The notes under the pieces are model-generated. The model did not search any database and was not told the DNA's origin. It saw only the letters and a program-made list of their open reading frames with translations. DNA of 64,000 nt, from contig CAWJTV010000012.1 in assembly GCA_963845755.1 (NCBI GenBank), positions 32,001-96,000 of the forward strand. Direction: 5' to 3'. Position numbers and translations under genes: made by a program. Positions 5,690 through 53,075 of the stretch are shown here, piece after piece. Source of the stretch: an uncultured Planctomycetota bacterium. Lineage in GTDB: Bacteria; Planctomycetota; Planctomycetia; Isosphaerales; Isosphaeraceae. Each line of letters starts with the position of its first letter. The stretch's first letter is position 1.

Positions 5690-8024
5690 TCACGGCACGT
5701 AAAGGAACTCATTACAATTCAGCAATGCGAGGGCAATATCGACCCACGCCGCGGCCTCGGCCGGATCGATCCCATTGGGCTGGCGGACTTCCGTTCGACC
5801 ATCGCGGGACTGATTGCGAATCCGATCGGCCTGGGCCTTCAAGAACGATCTTGCGCGTTCGACCTCATTCGATTTCGGCGCACGGGCCAGCGCGAGTTGA
5901 TAGGCACGTCGAATCCGATCGTCGGTCTGGGCTCCTCCCTCGCGGAGAGCGCGGCCCGCGAGGACTCTGGCTCGACCGCCGGCGAAATCGCTATTGAGCA
6001 GCGTGAGAGCCTGGAGCGCGTGGGTGCTGGTTTCTCGACGAGGGCAGGCGCTCTGTGTGTCGGGCGCATCGAAGGCGTCGAAGAGCGGATAACGCACATT
6101 GCGCTTGCGGAAGAGATACAACGAACGCCTCAGGTGCTGGGACGGGTCCGGATCTTCGGGCCAGAGGTCGACAACCTCCGCCTCGGTGAAGATGAGGTCC
6201 TTGAGCTCCTTCTCGAGCGGGGCAAGGATTCCCGGACCGCCCATCTGGGGATTGAGCTCTCCCGAGACGGCGAGCATGGCATCGCGGATGCCTTCCGCAT
6301 CGAGTCGCCGGCGATTCATGTGGCTGAGCAAAGCGTTCTCGGGATCATCGGCGGCCTGCTTGGAATTCGGCAGGCTCGATTGTCGATAGGTTGCCGAGGT
6401 CACCATGAGCCGATGTAAGGATTTGAGTTTCCAGCCATCGGAGATCAACACATTCGACAGCCAATCGAGCAACTCGGGATGGGACGGAGACTCGCCGCGA
6501 ACGCCGAAGTCGCTCGGCGTGGCGACAATCCCCCGGCCGAAGTGATATTGCCAGAGCCGGTTGACGATGACACGCGCGGTCAAAGGGTTATCGGATCGGG
6601 CCAGCCAGCGAGCCAGCGCCGCGCGACGGCCGGTCTTGTCGTCCTTCGGCACGATCGAGGAATTCGTGAACGCCCCGGTCGGCTGTGTGGCCAGGATCAC
6701 GCCCGGCGGCCGAGGAGCGACCTTGGGGCCACGGTTCTGGTAATCGCCGCGTCGGAGGACGAACGTCTCGGTCTCTCTGGATTTCTGGTCAACCAGGGCC
6801 ATGGCATGTGCGGGTGGGCGCGGCAGGGTTCGTTCGATCTCGTAGATCGCGCGCTTGAGGGTCTCTCGCCGATCGTGGACGGACCGATCGGGATCGGCGG
6901 CGACGGCCGCGGCGACATCCTCCCACGTGACCCGTAGCGACGTCTCGAGTCCCGCGGCGAGCTTCTTCTGCGCAGCCGTTCGTTGCTTTGAGGGCGTGTT
7001 CATCACGACTCGCTCCTCGGGGCTCAGCATGGCGACCTTGCGATCCTTGATCGCCTTTCGATAGGGTGCCTCGAGCTGGGCGAGCTCGCGCCTTGAGTGG
7101 TGCGGATTTGGCGTGGACCGCTTTCTCGGAGACTGCGAACGCGTCGCGCTCGGTCTTCGACGCGATCGACACGTCGTCGAGCTTCGACGTGGCGAAGAAC
7201 GCCTGGAGCCGGTAGTAATCGGTCGTGGGGATCGCGTCGAACTTGTGATCGTGGCAGCGGGCGCACCCGATCGTCAGGCCGAGGAAGACCGAGCCGACGG
7301 TGCCGGTGATCTCCGAGAGTTCCGACTGCCGCTTGACCTCGGGGATCACGTTGCCGCCCACGACCTCGCGTGGGCCGCACCGGCAGAACCCCGTGGCGAT
7401 CAGGGCGTTTCGATCGCCGGCCTTGAGGTCGTCTCCGGCAACCTGCAGCTCGAGGAAGCGATCGTAGGGCAGATCGGCGTTCAAGGACCGGATGACCCAG
7501 TCCCGGTATCGCCAGGCATCCGGGCGTTCGGCGTCGAGCTCGAAACCGTTGGAGTCGGCGTAATGCGCCAGGTCCAACCAGTGTTGTCCCCACTTCTCTC
7601 CATACCTCGGGCTGGCCAGCAAGCGATCGACCAGGCGCTCGTAAGCATCCGGCCTGTGGTCGCCAAGGAACGCGGCTGTGTCCTCGGGCGATGGCGGAAG
7701 CCCGGTCAAGTCGAAAGTGACCCGGCGGATCAAGGCCACGCGCTCGGCATCGGGAGCGGGTGACCAGTCTACCTCCTCCAGCACCGCCAGGATGAACCGG
7801 TCGATCGGATTGCGTACCCATCCGACGGCCTTGACCCTCGGCGGCTCGATGATCTTTAGCGGCTGGTAGGCCCAATGACTCCGCTGTTCGCTGGTGAAAG
7901 ACTCGGGCGGGGCGAACCCGTCGGACTGAGCGGGAGGCTCGCTCGCCATCGTGAGCGGGAGGATCGGGAGGAGTATCGCAAGGGGGATCAGGGCGATTCT
8001 GCGAACAGCCACAGCCATGGACAT
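5690..8024 (-). CDS. DUF1549/DUF1553 (PSCyt2/PSD1) protein, apparent frameshift near 7090
   Basis: NPIDRFI, LIRRVTFDLTGLPP, CARCHDHKFD (CxxCH) in ORF 6789..8069; NPLTARVIVNRLWQYHFGRGIV and HPELLDWL in ORF 5690..7030. Confidence 0.9.
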
Positions 8025-9588: not shown

Positions 9589-9859
9589 CGGACCCTCCCC
9601 CTTCGATCACGTTCGGGACGGATCTCCGAACTCTCGATCGCCAGGACACCCGACAACCTCGATGATCGTCGAGTATTTGAGGAAAGTTTAACATTCGGTT
9701 TGTCGTCTGGACAAGGTGGTGATGGCGCACGTTCTGCGCTCCGGCTCAATGGCGCCTGTCTGAGATCGTCTCGCGTCTGACCTATCGAAGGCTTACGCTG
9801 GATGATCGAAGTGGAAGGACGATGATCGGATCCCGGACTTCGAAGTGAGAGGAGACTCC

Positions 9860-11016
9860 TTGGCGGAGATCAATTTGAAGCAGCTTTCGAAGGGTTTTGG
9901 AGGAGGAATCCCGGTCCTCGAAGCCATCGATTTGAATATCCGTTCCGGCGAGCTGCTGGTCGTGTTGGGGCCATCCGGGTCGGGGAAAACGACTTTGTTG
10001 CGACTCATCGCCGGTCTGGAGTCACCGAGCTCGGGCCGGGTTTGGATCGACGGTCGTGATGCAACCTCGGTCCGACCGGCTCGTCGAGACGTGGCCATGG
10101 TTTTCCAGCAGCCTGCCCTCTACCCCCATTTGACGGTCTTCGACAACCTCGCGTTCGGTCTGCGCGCGCCGGGGCATTCCCCGGAATCAGATTCGGTCCA
10201 AGGTGAATACGATCGCCGGACTGCTGGGACTGGACTCGCTCCTGGCCCGTCGACCAGGCACACTCTCTGGAGGCGAACGCCAGCGCGTGGCGATCGGCCG
10301 CTCGATCGTGCGACAACCGCGCGTGCTCCTCTTCGACGAGCCGTTCTCGAGCCTCGACCTGCCACTGCGCGTCGGCACTGCGCGAGGAAGTGGTTGAGCT
10401 TCACCGCCAGTTCGGGACGACGTGGATCCTCGTGACGCACGATCAGGCCGAAGCGCTCCTCTTGGGTGATCGAGTCGCCGTCCTCGATCGCGGCCGACTG
10501 CTCCAGTGCGGCCCACCCCGAGCGATCTACCAACAACCAACGAACCGGTTTGTCGCCACTTTCGTCGGTTCACCACCGATGAACATCCTGGCCTGCGAGG
10601 TCGAACGCGACGGCGACCGCCTCCAAATCCACGTCATCGCGGCGAAGCAAGGGTTGAGCTGGCCCATGGCCGGCAGTGGGCCGCCCGCCGTATGGCTGGA
10701 GGGGATCGACCGCATCGAACTCGGACTCCGGCCCGAAGCGATCAGCGTACGGACGTATGGCCCATCCTCGGAAGCCCCACCCTCGTCGCCAACGTTCCCG
10801 GCGCAGGTCCTCCGGCTGGAGTTTAACGGACCCGACCTCCTCGCCACCCTGGCCCTCGGTCCTCATCTCCTGGTGGCCCGTGTGCCCGCCAGCCAGCCCA
10901 TCTCTGAGCGGGAAGTTGTCCAGGTCGTCCTCGACCTCGACCGGGCCGTCTGGTTCGACCCCGCGACGGGCCGAGCATTGAATCTCGGTGGACAGGCGGC
11001 GACTAGTTCAACGTGA
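9860..11016 (+). CDS. ABC transporter ATP-binding protein (MalK/UgpC-like), apparent frameshifts
   Basis: Walker [10 protein letters not shown], signature [13 protein letters not shown], Walker [17 protein letters not shown] and a TOBE-like tail spread over three frames. TTG start after AGGAG. Confidence 0.88.
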
Positions 11017-11505
11017 TCAGTCCGCCGCGGAAGTCCAGCATCAGGATCCGCTCGCGGAGGAAGGCGAGACCGAGAACGCCGTCAATGTTGGCGTCGGAAC
11101 GATTGCGAGAATCAAGAGTGGAGATCCGTCCGGCTCCAACCATGAATGATCGGTGCAGCAAGAGCCCAAGATCACGCGAGACTCGGAGACAAACGCAAGA
11201 GCCGTCCTGCGTCCGGGAGGCATTGGAATCGTCCAGTCCGGGGTATCAGCTCTCGAGTTCCGGCGGGAGTAACCCCCGAATCGCGTGTGGAAAAGACAAC
11301 GTCTGGCGACCTCTTCCTTCCGTTCCTCTGCCGATTCATACGCAATCGCCAATTCATGAGCTAATCTTGGATCGAGAGATCGAGCGGGTCAGGGGTCCGG
11401 ACCGGAAAAACCCCTTGGCCATGGCCAAGGCGAGATCGGACCCGCTCGTCGAGCCGACTTGCAACCCGATGGAATTCTTCGACTACGAGGAGACCTACCG
11501 AAGCG

Positions 11506-11886
11506 ATGAGCCAGCACATCCTCGTCATCGAAGATGATCCAATGAATCTCGATATGATCACTCAACGTCTAGAGTTGAGGGGCTATTGCGTCGCGGGAGC
11601 CGTGGACGGCCCGGAGGGGATCGAGCTGGCCGTCCTGGAGACGCCCGACCTGATCCTGATGGACGTCAGCCTACCGGGAATGGACGGCTGGGAGGTCACG
11701 CGTCGCCTCAAGGCCGAGGCAGCCACCCGGCACATCCCGGTCGTCGCGCTGACGGCGCACGCCATGGCGAGCGATCGGGACAGGGCCGTACAGGCCGGTT
11801 GCGACGAATACGTCACCAAGCCCGTAGATTTCCAGCGGCTGCTTGCGAAGATGGAAACGCTCCTCGGACGAAAGGCGATGGCATGA
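11506..11886 (+). CDS. Single-domain response regulator (DivK/CheY-like)
   Basis: ILVIEDD, PDLILMDVSLPGMDG, ALTAHAM, YVTKP. Confidence 0.93.
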   Translation: MSQHILVIEDDPMNLDMITQRLELRGYCVAGAVDGPEGIELAVLETPDLILMDVSLPGMDGWEVTRRLKAEAATRHIPVVALTAHAMASDRDRAVQAGCDEYVTKPVDFQRLLAKMETLLGRKAMA

Positions 11887-14064
11887 CGACTCGCGCGGCC
11901 TCTCTCCTCGTGGTGGACGACGAAGAGCTCAACCGGGACATGCTCTCTCAGCGTCTGGAGTTGAATGGGTATACGGTGACGGCCGTCGAAAGCGGACGGC
12001 AAGCACTCGCGTTCCTCAATCGACATTCCTTCGATGTCGTCCTTCTGGACGTGATGATGCCCGAGATGAATGGCCTGGACGTCCTGCGGATGGTCCGCCG
12101 AACTCAATCCGCCGCGGAGCTGCCGATCATCATGGTGACGGCCCGTGACCAGAGCGAGGATGTCGTCGAGGCATTCGAGCTGGGGGCCAACGACTATGTG
12201 ACCAAGCCGATCGACCTTCCCGTCGTGCTGGCCCGGATCGCCACTCAGGTCTCCCACAAGCGGGCGCATGCAGCACTGCGCGAGAGCGAGGCACGGTACG
12301 CCCTGGCCGCCCGCGGTACGAACAATGGCCTGTGGGACTGGGACCTCCGAACCGATGAGGTCTTTTTCTCGCCGCGCTGGAAGGCGATGCTCGGGTACGA
12401 GGAAGATGAGCTCGGCACCAGTCCGGACGAGTGGATCCGGCGAATCCATCCGGTAGATACTCCTCGGGTCCGTGCCGCTCTCGACGCCCACCGACAGGGA
12501 TGCACACCTCACTTCGAGAGCGAACACCGGTTGCTGCACAAGGATCAGACCTATCGTTGGATGCTTGCACGCGGGTTGGCGGTCCGGGATTGCGACGGCT
12601 GTGGGCAACGCATGGCCGGCTCGCTGACCGACATCACGGAGGGCAAGGTGGTCGATGCGCTCACGGGCCTACCGAATCGGATCCTTCTCATGGATCGCCT
12701 CGAACGCGCGCTGCGAGCGCTCCTGGCGGAACCCGGACTATCAGTTCGCCGTCCTGTTTCTGGACCTCGATCGATTCAAATTGGTCAACGACAGCCTCGG
12801 CCACCTCATCGGAGACCAACTCCTGACCGCGTTCGCGCGGCGCCTCCAGGGAACTCTCCACGCCCTCAACTCTTCCATCGGATGGTCGGTCGAGCCAACC
12901 ATCGCGCGCCTCGGGGGGGATGAATTCACGATCCTGCTGGAAGACATCAAGGACCCGGCCAACGCGATCCGCGTGGGAGAACGGATCCAGAACGACCTCG
13001 CAACCCCCTTCAACTTGAGCGGACATCAAGTGTTCACCACCGCCAGCGTCGGTATCACCCTGAGTGGTCCCGAGTACGAACGGCCGGAAGATCTGCTGCG
13101 CGACGCGGACACGGCGATGTACGGCGCCAAGGCGACAGGCAAGGCCCGCCATGAGGTGTTCGACGCGAAGATGCGTGCCCGGGCGATGGCTCGGCTGGAG
13201 TTGGAGACCGAGTTGCGCTGGGCCCTCGAGCGCCGCGAGTTCCGGCTTTACTACCAACCGATCGTGACACTGGAGTCCGAGCAACTGATCGGGTTCGAAG
13301 CCCTCGTGCGCTGGCAGCACCCCCGGCGGGGCCTCCTGCTCCCGGAAGAATTCATCCCGGCCGCAGAGGAAAACGGGCTGATTCTATCGATCGGCTGGTG
13401 GGTACTCGACGAAGCCTGCTTCCAACTCTCCCATTGGAAGCACCGCTACTCCAACGAACAGCCCTTGATAATATGCATCAATCTCTCGGGCAAACAGTTT
13501 TCCCAGCCCAACCTCGTCGAACAGATCGAGAGCCGGCTGAATGCGAACGGCGTCGACGCGCGGGCCCTCAAGGTGGAGATCACCGAAAGCGCGATCATGA
13601 GCGATCCGGAATCGGCGGCAGAGATCCTCTCTCGACTCCGCGGCATGGGCGTGCAGATCGGGATCGATGACTTCGGCACCGGCTACTCGTCCTTGAGCTA
13701 TCTACGTCACTTCCCCATCGACACCCTCAAGATCGACCGAGCCTTCATCCAGCGGATGCATGCCGACACCAAGGACTGGGAGATCATCCAGACGATCGTC
13801 CGGCTGGCTCACAATCTGGCCATGGACGTGGTCGCCGAGGGTGTCGAAACGCACGATCAGCGACACCAACTCCAGTCTCTCGGCTGCGAGCATGGCCAGG
13901 GCTTTTATTTCTCACAGGCTGTGGCCGGATCAGACGCCGAGGAACTGCTTTCTCGATACTGGCAAAGGCCCGAAACGGGAAGGGAACCGCGGGCCGACGA
14001 TGCGACCTCGCCCAGCCTGCCCGTCGCCTCGGCGGTCAACGCGGCCTGTTCGATCGGGCAGTAA
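11883..14064 (+). CDS. REC-PAS-GGDEF-EAL diguanylate cyclase/phosphodiesterase, apparent frameshift near 12715
   Basis: ATGA overlap with upstream regulator. REC (LLVVDDE, LLDVMMPEMNG), PAS (GLWDWD...IHP), DLDRFKLVNDSLGH, RLGGDEF, GFEALVRW, DDFGTGYSSL. Confidence 0.92.
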
Positions 14065-14146
14065 CACCTCTCGCCTTAGAGAGCCTTGACTCGACCGCTC
14101 CTCGCCCGTTCGCGAGAAAGAAAGCGGCATTTCCCCTGCCAGTCAC

Positions 14147-14177
14147 TTTACTCCCCAGGCCCCATGTTTTATATAAC
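14147..14177 (+). promoter_or_regulatory. Putative sigma70-type promoter of hhySL
   Basis: TTTACT (14147-14152), 17 bp spacer, then TATATAAC in an AT-rich patch about 110 bp before hhyS. Confidence 0.45.
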
Positions 14178-14288
14178 TAGCTAGGTCAGTCAACTCGAGG
14201 CTGTTGTCGGTGGGCATTCGGAGCAATCGGGTCGGCTGGGCTCCGGACTCACTCCATCCCCTGGCTCCCATTGCAGAAAGGAACCGCC

Positions 14289-15323
14289 ATGGTCGAGCCG
14301 GCGATTCCGTATGGGCGGAGGACCCAGCCGTCTCCAGCCATCGCCGAGATGCACATCCTGTGGATCACCGCCGGACTTGGCTGTGATGGGGATTCGATCG
14401 CGATCACGGCCGCCACGCAACCCAGCCTTGAAGACCTGGTACTGGGTGCGATTCCGGGCCTCCCTACGATCCATTTACACCACCCGGTCCTGGCGTACGA
14501 GAACGGGGACGCGTTCCTGGAGTCGTGGTTCCGCGCAGCGGATGGCCGGCTCGACCCATTCCTGTTGATCCTGGAAGGTTCGATCCCCAACGAGCGGGAT
14601 CAGGAGGAGGGATACTGGGCCGCCGTCGGCGTGGACCGGGCCACCGGCCAACCGATCACCACTTGCGAATGGATCGACCGGCTCGCCCCGAAGGCGTGGG
14701 GCGTGGTCGCGGCCGGGACATGCGCGGCCTATGGCGGCATCCACGCTATCGAAGGGAATCCGACCGGCTGCATGGGCCTGCCGGACTACCTGGGTTGGAA
14801 CTGGCGCTCCACGGCGGGACTGCCGATTGTCTGCGTGCCGGGCTGCCCGGTCCAACCCGACAACTTCATGGAGGTGCTGCTGTATCTTCTCAATCATGCG
14901 GCGGGTCGGGCGCCAGCGATACCCCTTGACGAGGCATTACGGCCCGCCTGGTTGTTCGGGCAAACCCTCCACGAGGGTTGCGATCGAGCCGGGTATTACG
15001 AGCAGGGCGACTTCGCCAAGGATTATGGGACGCGGGAGTGCATTGTGAAGCTGGGATGCTGGGGACCCGTGGTCCAATGCAACGTCGGAAAGCGAGGCTG
15101 GATGGCCGGCATTGGCGGCTGTCCCAATGTCGGTGGCATCTGCGTCGGTTGCACCATGCCCGGTTTCCCCGACAAGTTCATGCCGTTCCTGGATATGCCG
15201 CCGGGTGCCCAGTTGTCCACGACGGCGGTCGCCATGTATGGAAAAGCCATCCGCGCCCTGCGGCAGTTCACCCGCGCGTCGATGAATCGGGAGCCCGAAT
15301 GGCGTGCGCGGGCCGCGAATTGA
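14289..15323 (+). CDS. hhyS: Group 1h-type [NiFe]-hydrogenase small subunit
   Basis: ILWITAGLGCDGDSIAITAATQPS (CxxD proximal cluster typical of group 1h), GTCAAYGGIH, PGCPVQPDN, HEGCDRAGYYEQG, KLGCWGP, GGCPNVGGICVGCTMPGFPDKF. No Tat signal. C-terminus possibly shortened by indels. Confidence 0.93.
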   Translation: MVEPAIPYGRRTQPSPAIAEMHILWITAGLGCDGDSIAITAATQPSLEDLVLGAIPGLPTIHLHHPVLAYENGDAFLESWFRAADGRLDPFLLILEGSIPNERDQEEGYWAAVGVDRATGQPITTCEWIDRLAPKAWGVVAAGTCAAYGGIHAIEGNPTGCMGLPDYLGWNWRSTAGLPIVCVPGCPVQPDNFMEVLLYLLNHAAGRAPAIPLDEALRPAWLFGQTLHEGCDRAGYYEQGDFAKDYGTRECIVKLGCWGPVVQCNVGKRGWMAGIGGCPNVGGICVGCTMPGFPDKFMPFLDMPPGAQLSTTAVAMYGKAIRALRQFTRASMNREPEWRARAAN

Positions 15324-15495
15324 CGAGGTTATCGAAGTCCTTTCCACGAATCACCGGGGAGGACCGTCGGACCGGAGCGACCAGGAAGGAATCAATTTGA
15401 AGATTCCAAATTCAATAATGAACATTTTCTTTAATATTTGAATTTTTGACCTTGTTTATGGATGGACTACTCTGATCCGCCGAGGGGCCCGCGAC

Positions 15496-17295
15496 ATGAC
15501 AGCAGGGGCAAATAATCCATCGTCCGGGCAGTCCGAACCACCTCATCTGGTCGAGATGTCGTGGGACCCGATCACCCGGATCGTCGGCAGCCTCGGCATC
15601 CACACCAAGATCGACTTTGCCAACCGGCGCGTGGCGGAGTGCTTCAGCACCTCGTCGATCTTCCGGGGTTACAGCGTCTTCATGAAGGGGAAGGACCCGC
15701 GCGACGCTCACTTCATCACCAGCCGGATCTGCGGCATCTGCGGCGACAACCACGCCACCTGCGCCTGCTACGCGCAGAACATGGCCTTCGGGATCAGGCC
15801 GCCGGCGCTGGCCGAGTGGATCATCAACCTCGGCGAAGCTGCCGAGTATATGTTCGACCACAACCTCTTCCAGGATAACCTGGTGGGCGTCGATTTCTGC
15901 GAGCAGATGGTCAAGGAGACGAATCCCGGCGTCCTGGAACGCGCCGAGCGGACCGAGTCACCCCACGCCGCCTTGCACGGCTACCGCACGATCGCCGACA
16001 TCATGCGGTCGCTCAACCCTTTCCGCGGTGACTTCTACATCGAGGCGCTCCAGATGAGCCGCCTGACCCGGGAGATGTTCTGCCTGATGGAGGGCCGGCA
16101 TGTCCACCCGTCAACCCTCTATCCGGGCGGCGTCGGGACGGTAGCCAGCGTGCAGCTCTTCAGCGATTATCAGGTGCGATTGTTAAAGTATGTGGAGTTC
16201 ATGAAAAAGGTCGTCCCGCTGCACGATGACCTGTTCGACTTCTTCTACGACGCACTGCCCGGTTATGAGGAGGTCGGGCGGCGCCGGGTGCTCCTGGGTT
16301 GTTTCGGGTCCTTCAACGATCCGGAGTCATGCGACTACTCCTACCAGCGGATGACTCAGTGGGGCCGGGCCATGACGGTCACGCCTGGGATCGTTATTGA
16401 CGGCGAATTGATCAGCACGGACCTGGTCGAGATGAACCTGGGTCTTCGAGTCTTGCTCGGAAGTTCTTATTACGACGACTGGCAGGATGCGGAGAGATTC
16501 GTAAAGGAGGACCCGCTGGGCCATCCGATCGATCAGAGGCACCCCTGGAATCAGACCACGATCGCGAAACGGCAGAAGCGCGACTTTCAGGGGAAGTACA
16601 CGTGGGTCATGTCGCCCCGATGGTATGACCCGCGTACCCAGGAGTATCGGGCGCTGGACACCGGCGGGGGCCCGCTGGCGCGCCTCTGGGTCACGGCCCT
16701 GGCCGGCCTCGTGGACATCGGTTACATCAAGGCCACCGGTCGGAGCGTCAAGATCTACCTTCCCAGGACTGCCTCGTTGCCGGAGGTCGAGTTCGAGTGG
16801 GCGATCCCGCGATGGAGTAACACACTGGAGCGCGACCGGGCGCGGACCTACTTCCAGGCGTATGCCGCCGCGGCGGCCCTGTACTTCGTCGAGCGAGCGC
16901 TCGAGGAGGTGTATGCCGGACGGACACGGACCTGGACCGAATTCAAGGTGCCCTTGGAGGCAATCGGTTGCGGCTTCCATGAGGCCGTGCGCGGTATGCT
17001 CTCGCACCACGTGGTGATTCGCGACGGGAAGATCGGCAATTACCATCCCTATCCGCCCACCTGCTGGAACGCCAGCCCGCGCGACATCTACGGCACGCCG
17101 GGGCCCTACGAGGACGCCGTGCAGAATACTCCGATTTTCGAAGAGAACGGCCCCGACCGCTTCAAAGGAATCGACATCATGCGCACGGTCCGGAGCTTTG
17201 ATCCCTGTCTGCCCTGCGGGGTCCACATGTACCTGGGAGATGGCCGGACGGTCCAGGTGCGCCACGCGCCGATGTTCGGCGTCGCAGAGGGGTGA
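15496..17295 (+). CDS. hhyL: Group 1h-type [NiFe]-hydrogenase large subunit
   Basis: WDPITRIVGSLG; L1 motif TSRICGICGDNH; L2 motif SFDPCLPCGVH followed by a C-terminal extension; 599 aa, intact. Confidence 0.95.
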   Translation: MTAGANNPSSGQSEPPHLVEMSWDPITRIVGSLGIHTKIDFANRRVAECFSTSSIFRGYSVFMKGKDPRDAHFITSRICGICGDNHATCACYAQNMAFGIRPPALAEWIINLGEAAEYMFDHNLFQDNLVGVDFCEQMVKETNPGVLERAERTESPHAALHGYRTIADIMRSLNPFRGDFYIEALQMSRLTREMFCLMEGRHVHPSTLYPGGVGTVASVQLFSDYQVRLLKYVEFMKKVVPLHDDLFDFFYDALPGYEEVGRRRVLLGCFGSFNDPESCDYSYQRMTQWGRAMTVTPGIVIDGELISTDLVEMNLGLRVLLGSSYYDDWQDAERFVKEDPLGHPIDQRHPWNQTTIAKRQKRDFQGKYTWVMSPRWYDPRTQEYRALDTGGGPLARLWVTALAGLVDIGYIKATGRSVKIYLPRTASLPEVEFEWAIPRWSNTLERDRARTYFQAYAAAAALYFVERALEEVYAGRTRTWTEFKVPLEAIGCGFHEAVRGMLSHHVVIRDGKIGNYHPYPPTCWNASPRDIYGTPGPYEDAVQNTPIFEENGPDRFKGIDIMRTVRSFDPCLPCGVHMYLGDGRTVQVRHAPMFGVAEG

Positions 17296-17301
17296 GCGGC
17301 C

Positions 17302-18901
17302 ATGTCGGGAGCTCCGGCCGCCAACGATGAAGAGCTCGAGAACCCGGATTTACGATTACGGACGTTTCGACGCGTGGGCCTGCCCATGATCGCCAATCCA
17401 GAACCTGCTCAACTCGCAACGGCCCCCGAGAGAGGGCTTAGCGATCACTCTGCGGAGGGTGGCCTGACGCTCGAGGAGGCCGAGGAGATCCTCCGGAACC
17501 TGGCTGACTCGGAATCCCGGCCTGAGGCGGCGCAGCTTCGACGGCCCGTTCCGATCGTCCCGAAAGAGGTCGGGAACGCAGTCGGTCCCGAGCCGTTTCA
17601 GCGGGCGGAAGCCCGGTATCGCACTCTGGTCGAGCAGCTTCCGGCAGTCACATTCATGGCGGCCCTCGAAGGGGGAGAAAACGAACTTTACGTCAGCCCT
17701 CAGATCGAGTCGCTTCTGGGCTTCTCCCAGAAGGAATGGCTGGAGGACCCGATCCTCTGGTACCGACAGCTCCACCCGGACGACCGGGTCCGCTGGCACA
17801 ACGAATTCGCGCAGACGTGCGCGATGGGAAAGCATTTTCGCTCAGAGTACCGGTTCCGGGCCCGCAACGGTCGTGTCGTCTGGGTTCACGGCGAGGCAAC
17901 GGTGGTTCGCGATGAGCATGGCAATCCTCTCTTCCTCCAGGGCATCGCTTTCGATATCACGGCACGCAAGCAAGCAGAAGCGACGCTCCGCAGGAACCAC
18001 GAGGAGCTGGAGCGTCGCGTGAGCCAGCGAACGGCCGAGCTCGCCACGGCCAACGACGTCTTGCAAGGGGAGGTCTGCGAGCGGCAGCGAGTCGAGGGAG
18101 AGCTGCGCCGGGTCAATGCCGATCTCGTCGTGGCCCACGAGCGGGCGCTGGAGGCCAGCCAGGTGAAGAGTACGTTCCTGGCCAACATGAGTCACGAGTT
18201 ACGAACACCCCTGAACGCCATCATCGGCTACAGCGAGCTCCTCCAGGAGCTGGCCGCCAAGAACGTCCCGAAGGACCCGACGCCCGGCCTGGAGAAGATC
18301 AACCGAGCCGGCAAGCATCTGCTCACGATTATCAACGATATCCTCGACCTCTCCAAGATCGAGGCAGGCAAGATGCAGCTCTTGCCGGAATGCTTCCTCG
18401 TTTCCGACCTGGTCCGAGAGATGGAGACGACCGTCCAACCGCTCCTGGCCAAGAACGAAAATGCACTGGAAATCCGGTACGATGAGCACCTCGGTACGAT
18501 GTTCACCGACGTGACCCGCGTCCGACAATGCCTCCTCAACCTCCTATCAAACGCGTGCAAGTTCACCCAGAGAGGAACCATCCGCATGGACGTAGCGCGC
18601 GAGACCGAGTCGGATGGCGACTGGGTGCGCTTCCGGATCCAGGACAGTGGCATAGGCATGTCACCCGACCAGGTCGGCCGGCTGTTCGATGCCTTCACCC
18701 AGGCCGATGCCTCGACGACGCGCAAATATGGCGGGACCGGACTGGGTCTGGCGATCACCCGGAAACTCTGCCGAATGTTGGGTGGCGACGTCTCCGTCGA
18801 GAGTGAGCTGGAATCGGGGCTCGGCATTCTTGATCCGGATCCCCGCATCCATCGAGGTAGGTCGGGTCGAGCCTGCCAGTCTGGCGGCGAGAGGCGATTG
18901 A
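17302..18901 (+). CDS. Cytoplasmic PAS-domain sensor histidine kinase, apparent frameshift near 18815
   Basis: PAS/PAC (YVSPQIESLLGFS...LHPDD...GIAFDITARK), coiled coil, H-box FLANMSHELRTPLNAIIG, N-box NLLSNACKFT, DSGIGM, GGTGLGL. Shifted frame ends SAFLIRIPA...GD* at 18901. No TM segment. Alternative start 17386. Confidence 0.92.
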
Positions 18902-19077: not shown

Positions 19078-19240
19078 CCTAACCCGGCCTTCGGCCGCAA
19101 CCCCATCGGGATTCCCGATTCGAGATTCCGGATTCCCGAAGGGGAATGATCCGGGAATCCGGAATCGCGAATCCGGAATCGCGAATTCGGAATCCCCAGA
19201 GGCGCGCACGGCGCAGGGATCGTACCGAGGAAGACTCTAA
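19078..19240. repeat. ~160-bp intergenic palindromic heptamer-repeat element, copy 1
   Basis: Closely matches 57231..57385; GATTCCC/GATTCGA/GATTCCG units followed by inverted GAATCCG/GAATCGC units. Confidence 0.9.
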
Positions 19241-19243
19241 CGT

Positions 19244-20368
19244 ATGCGCGACGTCGTGCGACAAGTCGTCCGGGTGCTGGAAATGGATCGCGAATTGATC
19301 CTCTGCCAGGTCGTGGAGACCCGAGGATCCACGCCTCAGAAGGGGGGCGCGGTGATGGTCGTCGATCCGACCGGCGGGCAGATCGGAACCCTCGGCGGCG
19401 GCTGCGTCGAGAACGAGGTGAAACAGAAGGCGATGCGGCAACTCGGCGGCACCGGCGCGGCCTTGCATTCGTTCCTCCTCGACCATGACTACGGCTGGGC
19501 GGATGGGCTGATCTGCGGTGGCAAAATGGTGATCGTCAGCCAGCCGTTGCGCGGTGCGGAACCGCTGGCCTACTTCCTAGCACTCGAGCGCGTCCTGGAA
19601 GCCGGTGAGGGCTTCACGGAAGCCGTGGTCATCCATCCCGAATCGGACGCCAGTCCGGCCATGGGGAGCCGATTTCTGTTCGATGGAGCGGGACGATTAC
19701 GGGCGAGTTGTCCGTCGCTCTCGGTACCCGAGCGGCTGGCATCGCGGGTCTCGCCAGTCGTTGAGCGGCTAAAACCCCGCGTCGAAGGGGGAGTGGCCTA
19801 CCTTCCGAGCTGGCCGCGGATCCGGCTGGTGATCGTCGGTGCGGGACACGTGGGCCAGGCCGTTGCCGGTCTGGCGGCCCAGGCGGATTTCGACGTCTGG
19901 GTCGTCAACGATCGCCGACAGTACGCCAATGCCGAGAGGTTTCCGTCGGCCCAGCGGATTCTCGTGGGACCGATCGAGGAGGTCCTCGGTTCGTTAGAGG
20001 CGACTCCCCACACATATGCCCTCATCGTCACCCGGGGACATGGACACGACCAGGAGGCGCTCTATCACCTGGCTCCAACGTCTGCATCGTACGTGGGGCT
20101 GATTGGCAGCCGTCGGAAAATCCGCCTGATCTTCGAGGGTCTTCGAGACCAGGGGATTAGTGAGTTGACCCTGAGGCGAGTCGCGGCCCCAGTCGGCCTG
20201 GATATCGGCTCCCAGTCGGTCATGGAGATCGCCATCAGCATCGTGGCTGAGCTGATCGCACGACGCAACCTGGGTCCGAAAGGGCTGTCCTCGCGTCCTC
20301 ACGGCGAGCCTCTCGGGGGCGCGACCGAAGGCGCACATTCGTGTGCCGGCGTCGCGCAGGCATCATGA
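19244..20368 (+). CDS. xdhC: XdhC/CoxI family molybdenum-cofactor insertion chaperone
   Basis: TRGSTPQKGGAVM, GTLGGGCVE, GLICGG, IVGAGHVG, YVGLIGSRRK, APVGLDIGS..EIAISIVAEL. Confidence 0.9.
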   Translation: MRDVVRQVVRVLEMDRELILCQVVETRGSTPQKGGAVMVVDPTGGQIGTLGGGCVENEVKQKAMRQLGGTGAALHSFLLDHDYGWADGLICGGKMVIVSQPLRGAEPLAYFLALERVLEAGEGFTEAVVIHPESDASPAMGSRFLFDGAGRLRASCPSLSVPERLASRVSPVVERLKPRVEGGVAYLPSWPRIRLVIVGAGHVGQAVAGLAAQADFDVWVVNDRRQYANAERFPSAQRILVGPIEEVLGSLEATPHTYALIVTRGHGHDQEALYHLAPTSASYVGLIGSRRKIRLIFEGLRDQGISELTLRRVAAPVGLDIGSQSVMEIAISIVAELIARRNLGPKGLSSRPHGEPLGGATEGAHSCAGVAQAS

Positions 20369-21342
20369 TCGCCGCGATCGTTCCCGCCGCTGGCAAGAGC
20401 ACCCGGATGGGGCGGCCGAAACTGCTGATGTCGCTTGACGGGGCGACGCTGCTCCATCGCGTGGTGACCGCGCTGCGCCAAGGGGGGGTGGAGCGCGTGG
20501 TCGTGGTGGTTCCTCCAGCCGATTCGCCCGAGGGCCCCCTGATCGCCGATGAGGCCCGGCACGCGGGTGCCGATGTCGTGAACCCCGTCACCCGACCCGC
20601 GGACATGCGGATGTCTGTCGAACTGGGACTGGCGCGGCTCAGGTCCGATGTGACCCCAAAGGTCGTGCTGCTGGCGCCCGCCGATGCACCGGGCATCTCG
20701 GCCGATCTCGTCGCTCGCCTGGTCGAGACCGCGCTGGGACGGCCCGGCTCGATCGTCGTCCCTTTCCACGAAGGCCGACGCGGTCATCCACTGGTACTAC
20801 CCTGGAACCTTGCTGAGCAGATCCCGGCTTTACCGGCAGGCGCGGGCGTGAATGCGCTCGTCGCTCGCAGCGCGAACTCGATTGTCGCGTTGAACTCGGC
20901 CAATCCCGACGTCCTCGTGGATCTCGACACACCCGAGGACTGGGATAAATGGAGGTGCCGTTCACTCGATAACGATCCCATGAACCAGGATGCGGGCTCG
21001 AATTCCTTTGACCGGTCTCCACTCCCGACTACCAAGATGCAGGTAAGAGTTCGTCTGTTCGCGATCGCGAAGGAGCGCGCCGGTCGCGCTGAGATCCTGA
21101 TTGAACTGCTCGCTCCGGCAACGATCGCGGACCTTCGAACCGCGCTCTGCGCTCATTTCATCGAGCTCGCCCCGTTGTGGTCGAGCGCGCTCATCGCGAT
21201 TGACGAGGAGTATGCCGACGATGAAGCAACCATCTCACCGGATTCTCAGATCGCCGTGATTCCCCCGGTGAGCGGCGGCGCCAGGACGATCTCGACCGCC
21301 CGCCACGATCACTCGAATGAGAGTTTCACCATCGATGATTGA
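20365..21342 (+). CDS. MocA-like molybdenum cofactor nucleotidyltransferase fused to MoaD/ThiS sulfur carrier
   Basis: IAAIVPAAGKSTRMGRPKLL...GRRGHP...DLDTPED, then VRVRLFAIAKE...IAVIPPVSGG plus a 20-aa tail. Confidence 0.85.
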   Translation: MIAAIVPAAGKSTRMGRPKLLMSLDGATLLHRVVTALRQGGVERVVVVVPPADSPEGPLIADEARHAGADVVNPVTRPADMRMSVELGLARLRSDVTPKVVLLAPADAPGISADLVARLVETALGRPGSIVVPFHEGRRGHPLVLPWNLAEQIPALPAGAGVNALVARSANSIVALNSANPDVLVDLDTPEDWDKWRCRSLDNDPMNQDAGSNSFDRSPLPTTKMQVRVRLFAIAKERAGRAEILIELLAPATIADLRTALCAHFIELAPLWSSALIAIDEEYADDEATISPDSQIAVIPPVSGGARTISTARHDHSNESFTIDD

Positions 21343-21757
21343 GATCACGAAAACGACAATCGACCATGCGGCCGTCACGGAGCAAGTCCGATCGAACCGC
21401 GCCGGCGCGGTCTGCACGTTCCTGGGGACCGTCCGCGAGTTGACGGGTGATCGTCTCACAGTCTCGCTATCCTATGAAGCCTACCCCGAGATGGCCCTGA
21501 AGAAGTTGGCGGAGCTGGAAGCGGAAGCGCGCCGGCGCTGGCCGATCATCGAGGTGGCGATGGTCCACCGGGTCGGACACCTGGACCTGGGCGACGTCAG
21601 CGTGGTCGTTGCGGTGAGCTGTCCGCACCGGCAGGATGCATTCGAGGCGTGTCGATGGCTGATCGATACCCTGAAAGAGGTCGTACCGATCTGGAAAAAA
21701 GAGAACTGGGCCGACGGGACCGAGGAATGGGTCCACCCCGGGTTGGGGACGAGTTGA
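21335..21757 (+). CDS. moaE: Molybdopterin synthase catalytic subunit
   Basis: GAVCTFLGTVRE, YEAYPEMA, HRVGHL, SCPHRQDAF, LKEVVPIWKKE. Confidence 0.93.
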   Translation: MIEITKTTIDHAAVTEQVRSNRAGAVCTFLGTVRELTGDRLTVSLSYEAYPEMALKKLAELEAEARRRWPIIEVAMVHRVGHLDLGDVSVVVAVSCPHRQDAFEACRWLIDTLKEVVPIWKKENWADGTEEWVHPGLGTS

Positions 21758-21849
21758 ACCCCATCGGACCGGCACCGAAATCGCTCCGCTCGTCAATTGT
21801 TCGCATAGAATGACCACGAAGACCTCGCAGGCCCCGAGCGACAGTATCC

Positions 21850-22850
21850 ATGACTGATAGAATCAATCGACTCGTGGACTCATTCGGACGTCCCCACAAC
21901 AACCTGCGGATCAGCGTGACGGACCGGTGCAACATCCGGTGCGTCTACTGCATGCCGGAGCAGGTCGAGTTCCTGCCTCGCACACAACTGCTGACCTTCG
22001 AGGAGATCGAACGATTCGTACGGATCGCCGTGACCCTGGGCATTGACAAGGTTCGGCTGACTGGCGGGGAGCCCCTGGTCCGGCGGCACCTGCCGATCCT
22101 CATCGAAAAGCTGGCCGCGATCCCGGGTATCAAGGACATCGGGCTGACCACCAACGGGATCCTGCTGGCACCGGTCGCCCGGACTTTGTGGGACGCCGGT
22201 CTGAGACGGATCAATGTGAGCCTGGACACGATGAACGCCGACAAATTCCAGGAGTTGACACGACGCACCGGTTTCGAGCAGGTCATTGAGGGGATCCTGG
22301 CGGCCAAGGAGACCGGCTTCGATCCGGTCAAGGTCAACGCCATAGCCATGCGCGGAGTTACCGAGGACGACGTCGTCCCCCTGGCTCAATTCTCGCGCAA
22401 GCAGGGTCTGGAGCTGCGTTTCATCGAATACATGCCCTTGGATGGCGGGCACCTGTGGGAGCGAGAAAAAGTCCTGTTCGCCGCGGAGATCCTCGAGTTA
22501 CTCGAGCGTGGAATCGGCCCGCTTCGACCCGTCGTCGATCAGGATCCCCGCGCACGGCGCTGGATTACGACTGGGTCGATGGGGGAGGACGGATCGGCTT
22601 TATCGCCTCGGTGAGCCGGCCATTCTGCCTGAGCTGCAACCGGATCCGGCTGACCTCCGACGGCAAGCTTCGGAATTGCCTGTTCGCGCTGGATGAGACG
22701 GACATTCGCGGATTGCTCCGCGGCGATGCCAGCGAGGCGGAGATTGTTCAGGCGATTCGCGACAGCGTCGCCGCGAAATGGGAAGGTCACGAGATCAATA
22801 CCGCCCGCTTCATCCAGCCCGAGCGGATCATGCACTCGATCGGCGGATAA
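21850..22850 (+). CDS. moaA: GTP 3',8-cyclase, apparent frameshift near 22555
   Basis: LRISVTDRCNIRCVYCMP radical-SAM motif, LTGGEP, RFIEYMP; FCLSCNRIRLTSDGKLRNCLF and terminal SIGG in the shifted frame. Confidence 0.93.
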
Positions 22851-35989: not shown

Positions 35990-38240
35990 TTACTGGATCA
36001 CCGCATTCTTCTGGGGGAGGACCGGGAACTGGCTGCTGGCTGGGACCGACGACGGCAGCGACTGGCCCGTCGCCGTGATACTCTGCGGAGACGGATCGAC
36101 GACCGTCGGACAGTGGATCATGACGGGGACTTTCACGCACACCTCGACCGGCACCTGCCGGCAGACCGTCCGCGGCACGCAGACCGGCTTGTTCTCGCAC
36201 ACCTGTCGGCAAACGGTCACCGGGCACTGGATGGTCTGAGTCTCGCAAACCTGCCGGCAAACCTTGACGGGTACCCTGCGGACACACTGAACGGTCTGCA
36301 TCTCACAGACAGTGACGGGCACCTGCTTGACGCAAGGTTCCGACACCATCTCGCAGTAGGTCTGACAGACCCGCTTGACGCAGGGATCCGCGACCATCCG
36401 GCAGGTCGTGACCGGCACCTGCTTGACGCAGGTCTGGGTCACCATCCGGCAAGTCGTGACCGGCACTTGCTTGACGCAGGTCTGGGTCACCATCCGGCAG
36501 GTCGTGACGGGCACACGCTTGACACAGGTCTGCGGTACCATGCGAGTGACCGAGCAGGGCACTTGCTTGTACTGGCACTCCCGGATCGTCCGCGTGACCG
36601 TGTAAGGGACCTGCTTCGAGCACGTCTCCCGGACGTACTGGGTCACGGTATACGGCTCTTGGCGATACTCGGTCTTCGGGCACATCTTGGTGACCGTGAT
36701 CGGAACGCGGCGCATCACGGTGCGAGGCTGCATCGTGCAGAAGGTATACGGCACGGTCTTGGTGCACGTCTCTTGAACGGTCCGACAGACGGTGACGGGC
36801 ACCTGCTTGACGCACTGCTGGGCCACGTACTCGCAAACGGTGACGGGCACCTGCTTGACGCAGGTCTCGTTCACCATGCGGCAGGTCGTCACCGGGATCT
36901 GCTGCACGCATTCCTGGGCGACCATCTGGCAGGTGGTCACCGGAACCTGCTCACAAACGGTGTACGGCACCTGCTTGCAGACCGTATAGGGCACCTGCTT
37001 GCGAATCACTTGCTTCTCATAGACCGTGCAGGCCACATCCTCGACGACCGTCCGGGGACGGCAAACGGGTCGCTCGCACCAGGTCCCGGGACACTCGTAG
37101 AGACAGCCATTGACGCAGACCGACTTGCCCGGGACGAAGTACCGCTCCATCACCGTTTCGTTCACGGTGCGGCAGACCTGCTGCTGAACCGTCCTGGGCA
37201 CGCAGACGGTCTCGCAGACCTCGCGACAGGCCGTCTCGTTCACGGTCTGATAGCATGTCCGGCTCACGGTCTTGAATGAGGTCGTCTGCACGGGACGGCA
37301 GACGGTATACCGGCATTCCTTCATCACCGTCTCGCGGACCGGCCGGCTCACGGTGTATGTGCAGCTTCGCATCTCCGTGCGCGTGTACGGGGACGCGCAC
37401 CGTGTATCGGCACTCTTTCAGGACGGTCTCATTGACCTGACGGCTGACCGTGTACGGGACCTGTTTGTACGCGCACTGACGAACCTGGACCATCTCGGTC
37501 GCCGGCTGGCACTGCATGACGCACTGCTGGACCGGGACCTGAACGGTGTAAGGGACGCATCGCATGCGCGTGCTCTGGACCGGACGGCACACGGTGTAGA
37601 CGCAGGTTTTGTAGCACGTCTGTTGGACGGGGCGGCAGACCGTGTAGGACACCGTCTTCATGACGGTCTCTTGCACGGGTCGGCAGACGGTGTAACAGAC
37701 GTCCTTGTAAGAGACCTCGCGGACCGGCCGGCTGACATTGTAAGTGCAGGTCCGAAGGGTCGTTTCCTGCACCGGCCGGCAGACCGTGTACGTGCGGTTT
37801 TCCAGGTGAGTTTCCTGGACGGGCCGGCAGACCGTGTAGGTCACGTCCTTCCAGACTGTCCGCGTGACCGGCCGCTGAACCGTGTACTGGACGGGCTGGA
37901 GGACCGTGTGATAGACCGGCCTCTGGACCGTGTATGGTTCCTCGCGGATCTGTTCGTCCACCACATTTCGCACATTGGTGACCGTCCTCGGCTGCATGAC
38001 CGTCTCGGACACGGTCCGCATGCTCGGGACAAATTGCGTCTCGTACACCGTCTCCTGCACGTTCTGGAGAACGGTCTGACGCTGGAGTTGATATTGGATG
38101 TGCCCACAACAATCCTGGGGCACGGGGCAAATTCGGTTTGATGCACCACCCGCGTAGCTCGCTCCCTCCGCCGGGTGCGCGACCGCGCCCAGCCCTATGC
38201 CCAGGGCCAACAGCGCGACCGACAGCAGTTTTCTCAACAT
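35990..38240 (-). CDS. Secreted Cys/Val/Thr-rich YTV-repeat protein (~750 aa), apparent frameshift near 37375
   Basis: Signal peptide MLRKLLSVALLALG; 16-aa repeats YTVCRPVQET... and CVKQVPVTTCRMV...; joins ORFs 37017..38450 and 35990..37372. Confidence 0.85.
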
Positions 38241-39346
38241 CGGACGCTCCACTAAACACTCCCGACCTACTTCGGCGCTCATCGGTTCCCGAGACCCCAA
38301 GTCTCCGACTCCGCCTCGGGACCGCCAACTCACTCTCTTACTTCGTCCCATGACCACGTCGTGCTTCAGGAAGTTTCTCCAAATTTCCCAGTGGCCAAAT
38401 TCCCCCAAAACGTAATGTTTGCCCAGATGTTGTGTTGCTCTCGCAGACACTCTGAATTATCAGAAAATCCCGGGAAGGGAACCGAACCGGAATGGTGGGA
38501 GTCACCCGCAGGGTTTCGCTGATCCGTCCGGAAGAACGCGCAGTGTTCGAGGACAGGGCCTCTTCTCGGGTCGATGCCGTTGACCGAGTCTGGGCAACCT
38601 CACCGGTTCCGAGAAACCGGACGATCAAGCCTTATGCTTAGGCATCTTCGCGGCGGCCTGGTGCGCGGGATCGCAGAGACGGACGAACAGGGCCGCTTCT
38701 TCGAGTCCGACCCGGTCGGCGCGGCCAAAGGCGCGACCCGGCTAGGCTCGGATCCTAACGCGGGCATGATTCCCAAGGTCAAAACGAAATGACCTGGACG
38801 TATCTGATGTTCTCGCGTTCAGATGCTCGTGACGAACTTCCTCGCCGAAGGCCTCATGAAATGGCACTCTTTGGCATCTTATTGGAAGGTTGCCTTCCCC
38901 GATCTCTTTGTCCGGAAGGGATTTGTGACAGGTTGTCGGATCGGTCGGAGCAGTCCACTCGTCAGCATTTCGGACCCGTTCTTCGGCGCGTAATTACCAC
39001 ACTGTTTATTAGTATAACACAGCTTTTCAAAAGCGTTAATGCACCTATCGGGGTCCTTGGACGATCAGTTTCCCTAATTCCTGATCTCTGCGGCAGTTAA
39101 GAATATCCGGAAAAATTCCTGCCCGGTTGATTACAACGCCCCCTTTTGGCCTACGTGGTATCGTCAAGAGTCGCCCACGGGACTTGCTGCGAGCCCTTCC
39201 ACCGCTTCCAGGAACCCCGAGCACTCCGAACAATCTCGTTGACGTGGCTTGGGGCGTCGACGAGAATTGTCATCGTGCGACGTCATTCGTAAACTGCTCG
39301 GGAGCCGGAGTCAACGGACTTCCGAGCCCCCACACCTGGTGCTACC

Positions 39347-52182: not shown

Positions 52183-52410
52183 TCATTCGGCCGCGAGACG
52201 GATCGACGTTTGGAGACGCTCGGCGTCGGTCAAGAGCGAAAATCCCAGATCGCCGTAGGCATGGGCGGTGAGGATGGGTTGCCCGTCACGAATCGGACGG
52301 GGTTCCGTCGCATGCCGCTTGATAGCCTGGACCATCGCGGGCCTGGGGATTGCAGCGAGGAAATCGGGAGTCGCAACGATGGCACCGAGACGAAAGCGTG
52401 CGGGTTGCAT
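52183..52410 (-). CDS. Small hypothetical protein
   Basis: RFRLGAIVATP...RH...TDAERLQT resembles a small family I recall from mobile elements. Confidence 0.5.
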   Translation of the reverse strand: MQPARFRLGAIVATPDFLAAIPRPAMVQAIKRHATEPRPIRDGQPILTAHAYGDLGFSLLTDAERLQTSIRLAAE

Positions 52411-52855
52411 GGGCGTTTCTCCGTATGAGCCCGGTTCGACAAAGGAGGAATGAATTCGGCAGGGAATTCGTTCGGCCGGCGGTTTTATTCGGCCGCTTCC
52501 TCGTCAAAGCAAGCGCCGTGCCGACACTCCGGGAAAAACAGGACAGGAAGCGGGCCATTCTTCCCGGCCGGTTCACGGATCGACTCCACCCGACGGTACG
52601 GTTGGCGGAGCGAGCCGAGAAACCCACTCGGCCGCGCGAACGCGTCGGCCGGGAACTCTGGATCTCCCCCTTCGAACTCGGTGACCCTGGAGGTTGTCGA
52701 CAACCCGATTCTCTGAGGTGGTTTCAAAAGGTGGACAGGCACCTCGAAGAGTCGGAGGCAGTCCCCGTTTTGAAACAGCTTGTCTGGGGTATCGTGGCGG
52801 AGTGCTCCGGTCTGATCGACGCGGAAGTGCCCCCAATCGCCTGGAGTGGGCCGCC

Positions 52856-53072
52856 TCAATCGGACTCACCTGTTGCCTGGTGCCGAATCTCGCAGTGTGG
52901 GAGCGCGGCCCGAAGTCGTCGCACACCGTCCACGGTGATCCGGGTTTCTCGGACATCCAGCAACTCCAATTGCGGGAACTCCTCGAGTATCGGAACGACG
53001 TTGTCTCCGATCTCGGTCCGGCGAAACGTCACTCGGCTCACGGAATCCGCGCCTCGGCCGGTCATCGAGTCA
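52856..53072 (-). pseudogene. C-terminal LRR-like fragment separated from its N-terminus by the IS5 element
   Basis: TEIGDNVVPILEEFPQLELLDVRETRITVDGVRRLRAALPHCEIRH; no own start outside the IS. Confidence 0.6.
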
Positions 53073-53075
53073 TTA

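Follow-up and report, generated by a model that had tools for sequence, protein, structure and literature searches.

A group 1h [NiFe]-hydrogenase encoded with a dedicated PAS histidine kinase and c-di-GMP genes: a probable H2/redox sensor of planctomycetes

The window analyzed here, a stretch of 64,000 nucleotides from an uncultured soil planctomycete of the family Isosphaeraceae (assembly G000, 14.3 Mb, 88% complete; G000:C12:32001-96000), harbors five genes on the plus strand. They encode, in this order, a single-domain receiver (REC), a REC-PAS-GGDEF-EAL protein, the small (HhyS) and large (HhyL) subunits of a [NiFe]-hydrogenase, and a PAS-HisKA-HATPase histidine kinase. We conclude that this locus is probably an H2/redox sensor that is derived from a group 1h hydrogenase, is convergent on groups 2b and 2c, and signals to cyclic di-GMP (c-di-GMP). 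It looks like a real, conserved, and apparently uncharacterized variant, which is group 1h by sequence, seemingly 2b- or 2c-like in action, and a member of neither. Below, G, C, and L numbers designate genomes, contigs, and loci.

The gene order and common orientation given in the initial annotation agreed with the coordinates and domains, and two frameshifts had gone unmentioned there. The kinase indeed starts 6 bp after the hhyL stop codon and has no receiver; it also lacks a hydrophobic segment (maximum Kyte-Doolittle value of a 19-mer, 0.86). As initially annotated, window-wide tblastn with the genome's own HypABCDEF, HupD, NifU-like, and DUF5947/DUF6084 sequences revealed no maturation gene, and tblastn with receiver sequences revealed no receiver beyond the two upstream of hhyS. 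A domain scan detected no sigma54 regulator among the five genes.

One extra base near position 12713 splits the REC-PAS-GGDEF-EAL gene, and another is located near 18812 in the kinase gene. G001, a genome of the same genus, has neither of them at the orthologous locus and shows single-base shifts of its own at other places; both are therefore likely to be long-read indel errors. If these frameshifts, which affect two of the five genes, were real, the locus could be a decaying duplicate or a chance neighborhood, with a spare hhySL amid unrelated signaling genes. However, in addition to the absence of these frameshifts in G001, the ratios of nonsynonymous to synonymous substitution rates (dN/dS) across nine segments of the locus were 0.035 to 0.16 against G001 and 0.06 to 0.23 against a second genome (L056), and the arrangement recurs over genera, families, and phyla. 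Decay or chance is thus largely refuted by conservation, and we regard it as very improbable. The most constrained segment was the PAS domain of the kinase (0.035 and 0.061). Against G001, the dN/dS was 0.12 for the single-domain receiver, whose D/T/K motifs are conserved in all five related modules checked, and 0.04 to 0.16 for the REC-PAS-GGDEF-EAL protein.

HhyL and HhyS share 78% and 72% of their residues with HofG and HofK of Cupriavidus necator (PDB 5AA5), values that far exceed the identities to every other solved hydrogenase; the identities to HoxC and HoxB of the group 2b sensor are 26% and 34%. By its identity to solved hydrogenases, HhySL is thus assigned to group 1h, in agreement with the initial annotation. 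Both Ni-Fe motifs of HhyL are complete (RICGICG, L1; DPCLPCGVH, L2), and HhyS retains the Fe-S ligands C32, D35, C145, and C186 along with the distal and medial Cys/His residues; the assignment of ligands to individual clusters is in part presumed. An Asp ligand at the proximal cluster is described for the group 1h small subunit (PMC7174314). All metal ligands are intact and HhySL is under purifying selection (dN/dS of HhyL, 0.10 and 0.08). HhyS has no twin-arginine translocation (Tat) signal.

HhyL retains a C-terminal extension (22 residues past the motif) of the type that requires a maturation protease. The second, hyp-linked hhySL copy that the initial annotation proposed to look for is present on contig C20. 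It is the only other copy in the genome, is 80 to 82% and 73% identical to the window copy, and lies in a cluster with the order hypFCD-gmhA-hypE-hhySL-nifU-...-hupD-hypAB, in which DUF5947 and DUF6084 were named by gene order. This cluster holds the only HypD and the only maturation protease found in the genome, and the usual operon partners of group 1h (hypABCDEF, HupD, NifU-like, DUF5947, DUF6084) accompany the C20 copy and not that in the window. Since HhyL kept its C-terminal extension and the Hyp and HupD genes are only on C20, HhyL would have to be matured in trans. The high affinity for trace H2 postulated in the initial annotation does not follow from group 1h membership, because the C. 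necator enzyme, the closest solved one, has a Michaelis constant (Km) of 3.6 μM and because affinity in group 1h appears to be tied to membrane association (PMC7174314). The purified Methylacidiphilum enzyme was unable to oxidize sub-atmospheric H2 (PMC7174314).

The C-terminal TTGY tail is missing in the window HhyS. It is also missing in all 22 HhyS of hhyS-hhyL-PAS cassettes and all 15 of hhyS-PAS cassettes (37/37), whereas 31 of 32 unlinked HhyS and all four references possess it; in these counts, some HhyS ends from long-read assemblies are possibly frameshifted. As an independent test, metagenomes were scanned with HhyS alone. Among the best 80 of 631 loci (124 hhyS genes, many from close kin), a tail-less hhyS was followed by a PAS gene in 50 of 51 cases and a tailed hhyS by hhyL in 70 of 73; the order hhyS-PAS-(REC)-hhyS-hhyL was found in 43 of these 80 loci. 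Furthermore, hhyS precedes a gene for a PAS-GGDEF(-EAL) protein in L194 and L197, and in G147 and G148 a single hhyL is accompanied by two hhyS, of which the additional one is located directly before a PAS kinase gene.

The window HhyS carries the branch-typical residues I37, A38, W137, C182 (an extra cysteine), Q263, G267, and S331. In a FastTree analysis of 107 HhyS, in which unlinked rows came mostly from one family, a 62-row branch (SH support, 98) contained all 37 cassette rows, 25 PAS-cluster rows, and no unlinked row, and the genome's own C20 HhyS was found among the canonical rows. Using IQ-TREE with 53 chosen HhyS rows minus the last 22 residues, we obtained the PAS-linked branch with a support of 85 (29 rows), 27 rows of it at 96. 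As judged from the sequences, the specialized part appears to be mainly the small subunit together with the dedicated PAS domain. The correlation between HhyS and PAS identities (Mantel r = 0.76, 66 pairs) reflects shared ancestry and was not counted as co-evolution. Complex prediction for HhyS and the N-terminal helix/PAS fragment of the kinase (66-row alignments) gave a score of 0.00, with controls not folded, and was counted neither for nor against binding; the predicted HhyS structure was of low confidence in its C-terminal third and was not used. In RefSeq, small subunits of group 1h (L182-L185) bear the name "hydrogenase expression protein HypE", so that surveys relying on annotation may overlook second copies of hhyS.

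Among relatives, the PAS domain is 71 to 95% identical, both in kinases encoded after an orphan hhyL and in sigma54 activators encoded ahead of hhyS. A scan of species genomes with the PAS alignment retrieved 162 relatives; the locus counts refer to the best 80 of the 162, three of which are query rows. hhyS/hhyL or maturation genes were located near the PAS gene in 75 of the 80 loci (72 of 77 without the query rows): 67 had hhyS or hhyL (at least 55% identity) within 10 kb, and 54 had maturation or accessory genes. Five loci had neither, and all four genomes concerned have hhyS elsewhere. The nearest hydrogenase gene was less than 2 kb from PAS in 72 of 74 measured loci (median, 387 bp). The 80 loci belong to Planctomycetota (38), Myxococcota (22), Verrucomicrobiota (4), Gemmatimonadota (3), Rokubacteria (2), Acidobacteriota (2), and Pseudomonadota (1), with 8 unassigned. 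The PAS subfamily thus spans at least seven phyla; members are present in Sorangium cellulosum So ce26 and Nannocystis exedens DSM 71.

PAS and hydrogenase also co-occurred at the genome level. Among 121 family genomes, PAS was detected in 14 and hhyL in 46; all 14 PAS genomes were hhyL carriers, and none of the 75 genomes without hhyL had PAS (a frameshifted PAS copy in G029 was missed by this count and seen in a separate comparison of relatives). Larger samples were taken by phylum, each including its center genome and kin that are not independent. In 301 Planctomycetota, the two genomes with hhyS were the two with PAS matches of at least 198 bits, and none of 7 genomes with weaker PAS matches (131 to 152 bits) had hhyS. 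In 251 Myxococcota, both were present in the same 2 genomes. Ten of 201 Acidobacteriota had hhyS (at least 68% identity), six of them with PAS (at least 161 bits) adjoining an hhyS; the single genome with a weaker PAS (142 bits) had no hhyS. The linkage counts across loci argue that the association of hydrogenase and signaling genes is not due to chance. Thus, the linkage of hhySL to a PAS kinase and c-di-GMP genes, which according to the initial annotation was to be sought elsewhere, does recur (75 of 80 PAS loci; 8 of 8 genomes with the cassette described below).

In 18 family proteins, the PAS domain was fused to HisKA, hybrid HisKA-REC(-Hpt), HisKA_2, HisKA_3, sigma54-AAA, PP2C, or GGDEF-EAL, i.e., by its domain architecture it appears to be a fixed input with seven kinds of swappable outputs. 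No HhyS-PAS gene fusion was found among the 80 PAS reading frames, and an apparent hhyL-PAS fusion in L064 was a frameshift artifact. Comparison to HoxJ revealed no significant similarity of the PAS domain, only the kinase core being alignable (23%), and PDB sequence and fold searches gave generic PAS/LOV matches only (best identity, 32%), to which no cofactor could be assigned. Protein searches with PAS were overrun by multi-PAS proteins and yielded no family size.

Variants of the subfamily were also observed. In seven loci (L079, L076, L080, L086, L153, L189, L055), a PAS-sigma54-AAA-HTH one-component activator, which by its domains may act directly on the transcription of group 1h genes, is encoded between hypE and a canonical hhyS, and the HhyS and HhyL of these loci form a small clade of their own. 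A myxobacterial hyp cluster (L104) ends with a gene (9623-11146) for a fusion of PAS with a SpoIIE/PP2C phosphatase. Many kinases (L059, L065, L068, L070, L075, L078, L081-L083, L085, L100, L102) have a second PAS ahead of the hydrogenase-linked one. Its motif presumably resembles that of FixL-type domains, and it is a possible O2 co-input.

The c-di-GMP form was found in planctomycete relatives. In all seven family genomes with two hhyL loci, one copy is followed by a PAS kinase gene and the other is in a hyp cluster (two partial hhyL matches in G075 were read as one split gene); the kinase-tied copies lack the NifU, DUF5947, DUF6084, and HupD genes that follow the canonical copy. The orphan hhySL-PAS kinase cassette is present in 8 family genomes, all with REC and REC-PAS-GGDEF-EAL genes upstream, in six of them directly (G000, G001, G015 over a contig break, G082, G089, G092). 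In G015 and G089, the kinase is of the hybrid type, and the Gemmataceae locus L058 has the same genes rearranged. In G092, a 99% complete genome in 2 contigs, the only [NiFe] large subunit is encoded in the module, and a complete hyp/hupD cluster (L271, G092:C1:838000-857999) lacks hhySL, NifU, and DUF5947/6084. Since this genome has no other [NiFe]-hydrogenase and its hyp cluster has no hhySL, the module enzyme seems to be matured and used; this also allows a respiratory role. A second, divergent hypD is located elsewhere in G092 (L272).

To our knowledge, all proven H2 sensors belong to group 2b. In the HydDB classification, group 1h is respiratory, group 2b is linked to kinases, and group 2c is putatively linked to diguanylate cyclases (PMC5037454). 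The window enzyme shares with group 1h (HofK/HofG, PDB 5AA5) the Ni-Fe and Fe-S ligands, the C-terminal propeptide of the large subunit, and the lack of a Tat signal. In contrast, its locus has no maturation or accessory genes, its HhyS belongs to the separate, TTGY-less branch, and it is encoded together with a PAS kinase and c-di-GMP proteins. With the model H2-sensing system of group 2b, HoxBC-HoxJ-HoxA (PMC10073562, PMC4257681, PMC12319191), and with HupUV-HupT-HupR, it has in common a soluble [NiFe] enzyme encoded right ahead of a histidine kinase; by analogy, we propose for it the logic of a hydrogenase-kinase complex (PMC10073562, PMC4257681). Unlike group 2b, it has subunits with the low identity to HoxB and HoxC mentioned above, an HhyL propeptide (HoxC ends at the motif), a PAS domain not significantly similar to that of HoxJ, and two receivers plus c-di-GMP as output instead of a sigma54 activator (HoxA/HupR). 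Group 2c hydrogenases are likewise encoded with a GGDEF/EAL enzyme, and H2-to-c-di-GMP signaling was proposed for them (PMC5037454). However, group 2c is a group 2 lineage, itself unproven, whereas the window enzyme is of group 1h and would signal via a kinase; here, group 2c was set apart by its class description, the large subunit having been compared with HofG and the group 2b HoxC.

According to the initial annotation, no description of such a system was known. In the literature searched, we encountered neither a group 1h sensor nor the PAS subfamily nor a link to c-di-GMP; Greening 2015 PNAS, Greening 2016 ISME J, and SI-2 of PMC8027828 may say more on acidobacterial hhyS. The claim has to be qualified for one part: three Acidobacteria, Acidobacteriaceae bacterium KBS 83, Edaphobacter aggregans, and Pyrinomonas methylaliphatogenes, were reported to have an additional hhyS located about 3.6 kb ahead of hhySL (PMC8027828). 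It was transcribed in one of two strains tested and apparently was not assigned a function (PMC8027828); PMC5900883 describes the clusters, seemingly without mention of the extra hhyS. The order hhyS-PAS kinase-(REC)-hhyS-hhyL with a spacing of about 3.6 kb was seen in the 43 metagenome loci mentioned above and in three of four two-hhyS genomes of our Acidobacteriota sample; in the fourth, the hhyS copies are on separate contigs. The tail-less subunits of these loci grouped with the window HhyS (IQ-TREE). From spacing and gene order, we infer that the extra hhyS of the three reported strains belong to the PAS-linked family; KBS 83 and E. aggregans probably carry members of it. In the acidobacterial form, the extra HhyS lacks a dedicated large subunit and the kinase is of the HisKA_3 type, whereas the window HhyS comes with an HhyL and with c-di-GMP as the output.

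We consider the following mechanism the most likely one. HhyL would be matured in trans by the products of the Hyp and HupD genes on C20 and would pair with the tail-less HhyS. Oxidation of H2 would reduce the Fe-S chain of HhyS, and the N-terminal helix/PAS region of the kinase would dock on HhyS and read its redox state, in analogy to HoxJ with HoxBC. The helix, residues 12 to 26 in the structure model, is conserved in planctomycete and other family members that have PAS as the first domain, and it is a candidate docking element for the hydrogenase. Phosphate would then be transferred from H298 of the kinase to D53 of the receiver and D56 of REC-PAS-GGDEF-EAL, which would shift c-di-GMP and hence attachment or dormancy behavior. 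For a wider proposal, we consider the chances to be about even: group 1h may have given rise to a third, independent sensory [NiFe] class, in which the special HhyS and the PAS domain are a portable H2 input that serves outputs of the kinase, phosphatase, sigma54, or c-di-GMP type across seven or more phyla of soil bacteria, and which in these planctomycetes became a stand-alone HhySL sensor setting c-di-GMP, possibly at soil-air H2 levels.

Several observations weigh against an H2 sensor of this kind. The support of the PAS-linked HhyS branch was only 42 in an enlarged FastTree analysis, next to the 85 with IQ-TREE. The expectation in the initial annotation that linked enzymes form a clade held for the small subunits, which branch together, and failed for the large ones: PAS-linked HhyL are not monophyletic, and only the six closest orphan copies group (99). 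With gaps of 224 bp between the EAL gene and hhyS and of 172 bp between hhyS and hhyL, the genes may not share one transcript. Furthermore, soluble group 1h enzymes are sometimes of low affinity (PMC7174314).

Other observations bear on the nature of the signal. The PAS domain could sense a cue of its own (O2, redox, a metabolite, or carbon status), or the tail-less HhyS could be a plain Fe-S redox or O2 probe; the system would then regulate the hydrogenase or share a trigger with it, such as starvation, and H2 would not be the signal. In line with this, PAS is fused to sigma54 activators in G032, G035, G068, G029, and G694, in which the sole HhyS is of the canonical branch, which means that some PAS proteins do without the special subunit. 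Moreover, many members are encoded last in a hyp cluster of the ordinary kind, the lone-HhyS form has no adjacent large subunit, some members have the second PAS upstream, and acidobacterial hhySL is induced by carbon limitation (PMC8027828). However, in the window a complete HhyL under purifying selection is encoded beside the kinase, the output is c-di-GMP with no DNA-binding regulator, and an autonomous PAS would leave unexplained why a dedicated HhyS paralog is located directly ahead of it (50 of 51). We therefore consider a signal other than H2 unlikely.

The PAS-linked enzyme may also respire, because the tail is kept by 16 of 29 HhyS of hyp clusters with a PAS gene and because S. cellulosum So ce26, N. 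exedens, and G092 have no [NiFe]-hydrogenase besides it. It could then be an additional isoenzyme of group 1h, respiratory or dual-purpose, that feeds electrons to respiration, with the PAS kinase reporting its activity or controlling its expression and the c-di-GMP pair being a neighbor with other inputs. The identity of HhyL to a respiratory-type enzyme is compatible with this, as is the uneven linkage of the c-di-GMP genes: they lie 11 to 15 kb upstream, on the same strand, in G085 and G086, and G033 has a REC-PAS-GGDEF-EAL ortholog with no hydrogenase nearby. Against it, each of the seven two-hhyL genomes has exactly one kinase-tied copy, stripped of its accessory genes, and the tail is missing in every cassette-type HhyS. 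We judge a respiratory isoenzyme to be quite improbable and retain the H2/redox sensor as the preferred interpretation. The blocks that separate the c-di-GMP genes from hhyS differ between G086 (L297) and G085 (L298) and contain Ser/Thr kinase, TPR, CHAT, ECF sigma, and PEP-CTERM genes.

Table 1. Positions of the five genes and of two kinase segments in the window
Feature	Position	Strand	Basis
Single-domain receiver protein, 126 amino acids, phospho-acceptor D53	11506..11886	+	Pfam Response_reg
REC-PAS-GGDEF-EAL, c-di-GMP synthase/phosphodiesterase by domains	11883..14064	+	D56, GGDEF and EAL motifs intact
hhyS, group 1h small subunit, PAS-linked branch	14289..15323	+	Identity, ligands, diagnostic sites, trees
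hhyL, group 1h large subunit	15496..17295	+	Identity, both Ni-Fe motifs intact
PAS-HisKA-HATPase kinase, soluble, no receiver, phospho-acceptor H298	17302..18901	+	Domains, motif alignment
Amphipathic helix (EAExxLxxLA-like), N-terminal to the kinase PAS; candidate docking element	17470..17514	+	Alignment and structure model
Group 1h-linked PAS domain (PAS_3 subfamily)	17602..17979	+	Most conserved segment of the locus

In the hhyS-hhyL gap, which is about 66 bp long in G001 as compared to 172 bp here, a strongly AT-rich tract (15395-15460) is located in a region of 63% GC. A scan for promoters and terminators gave counts no higher than expected by chance (2 versus 1.7 and 6 versus 4.9), and contigs from two soil DNA runs were short pieces, none of them across the whole locus. 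Between the kinase gene and xdhC (19105-19200), short units bearing GATTC/GAATC are arranged in two inverted arms and look like a REP-type repeat; a similar stretch is present between accessory genes of the C20 cluster (L001, ~7750-7800). Downstream of the kinase gene (19244-22850), the molybdenum cofactor genes xdhC, mobA-like/ThiS, moaE, and moaA follow in the same order as in G001, the only other compared relative locus with these genes; they were not counted as part of the system. Farther away, the window contains a gene for a long YTV-repeat protein in two frames (35993-38450) and an IS4/5-family transposase gene (52350-53969).

Much of the uptake of atmospheric H2 by soil is driven by group 1h enzymes, and according to a 2026 paper, the signals and sensors that govern atmospheric H2 consumption are still to be understood (PMC13098282). 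If the module does read H2, it would be a candidate for such a sensor, would provide a function for the unexplained second hhyS of soil Acidobacteria, and would link trace-gas metabolism to lifestyle control by c-di-GMP. In addition, some hhyL and hhyS genes that soil surveys have counted among the respiratory scavengers may have a regulatory role.

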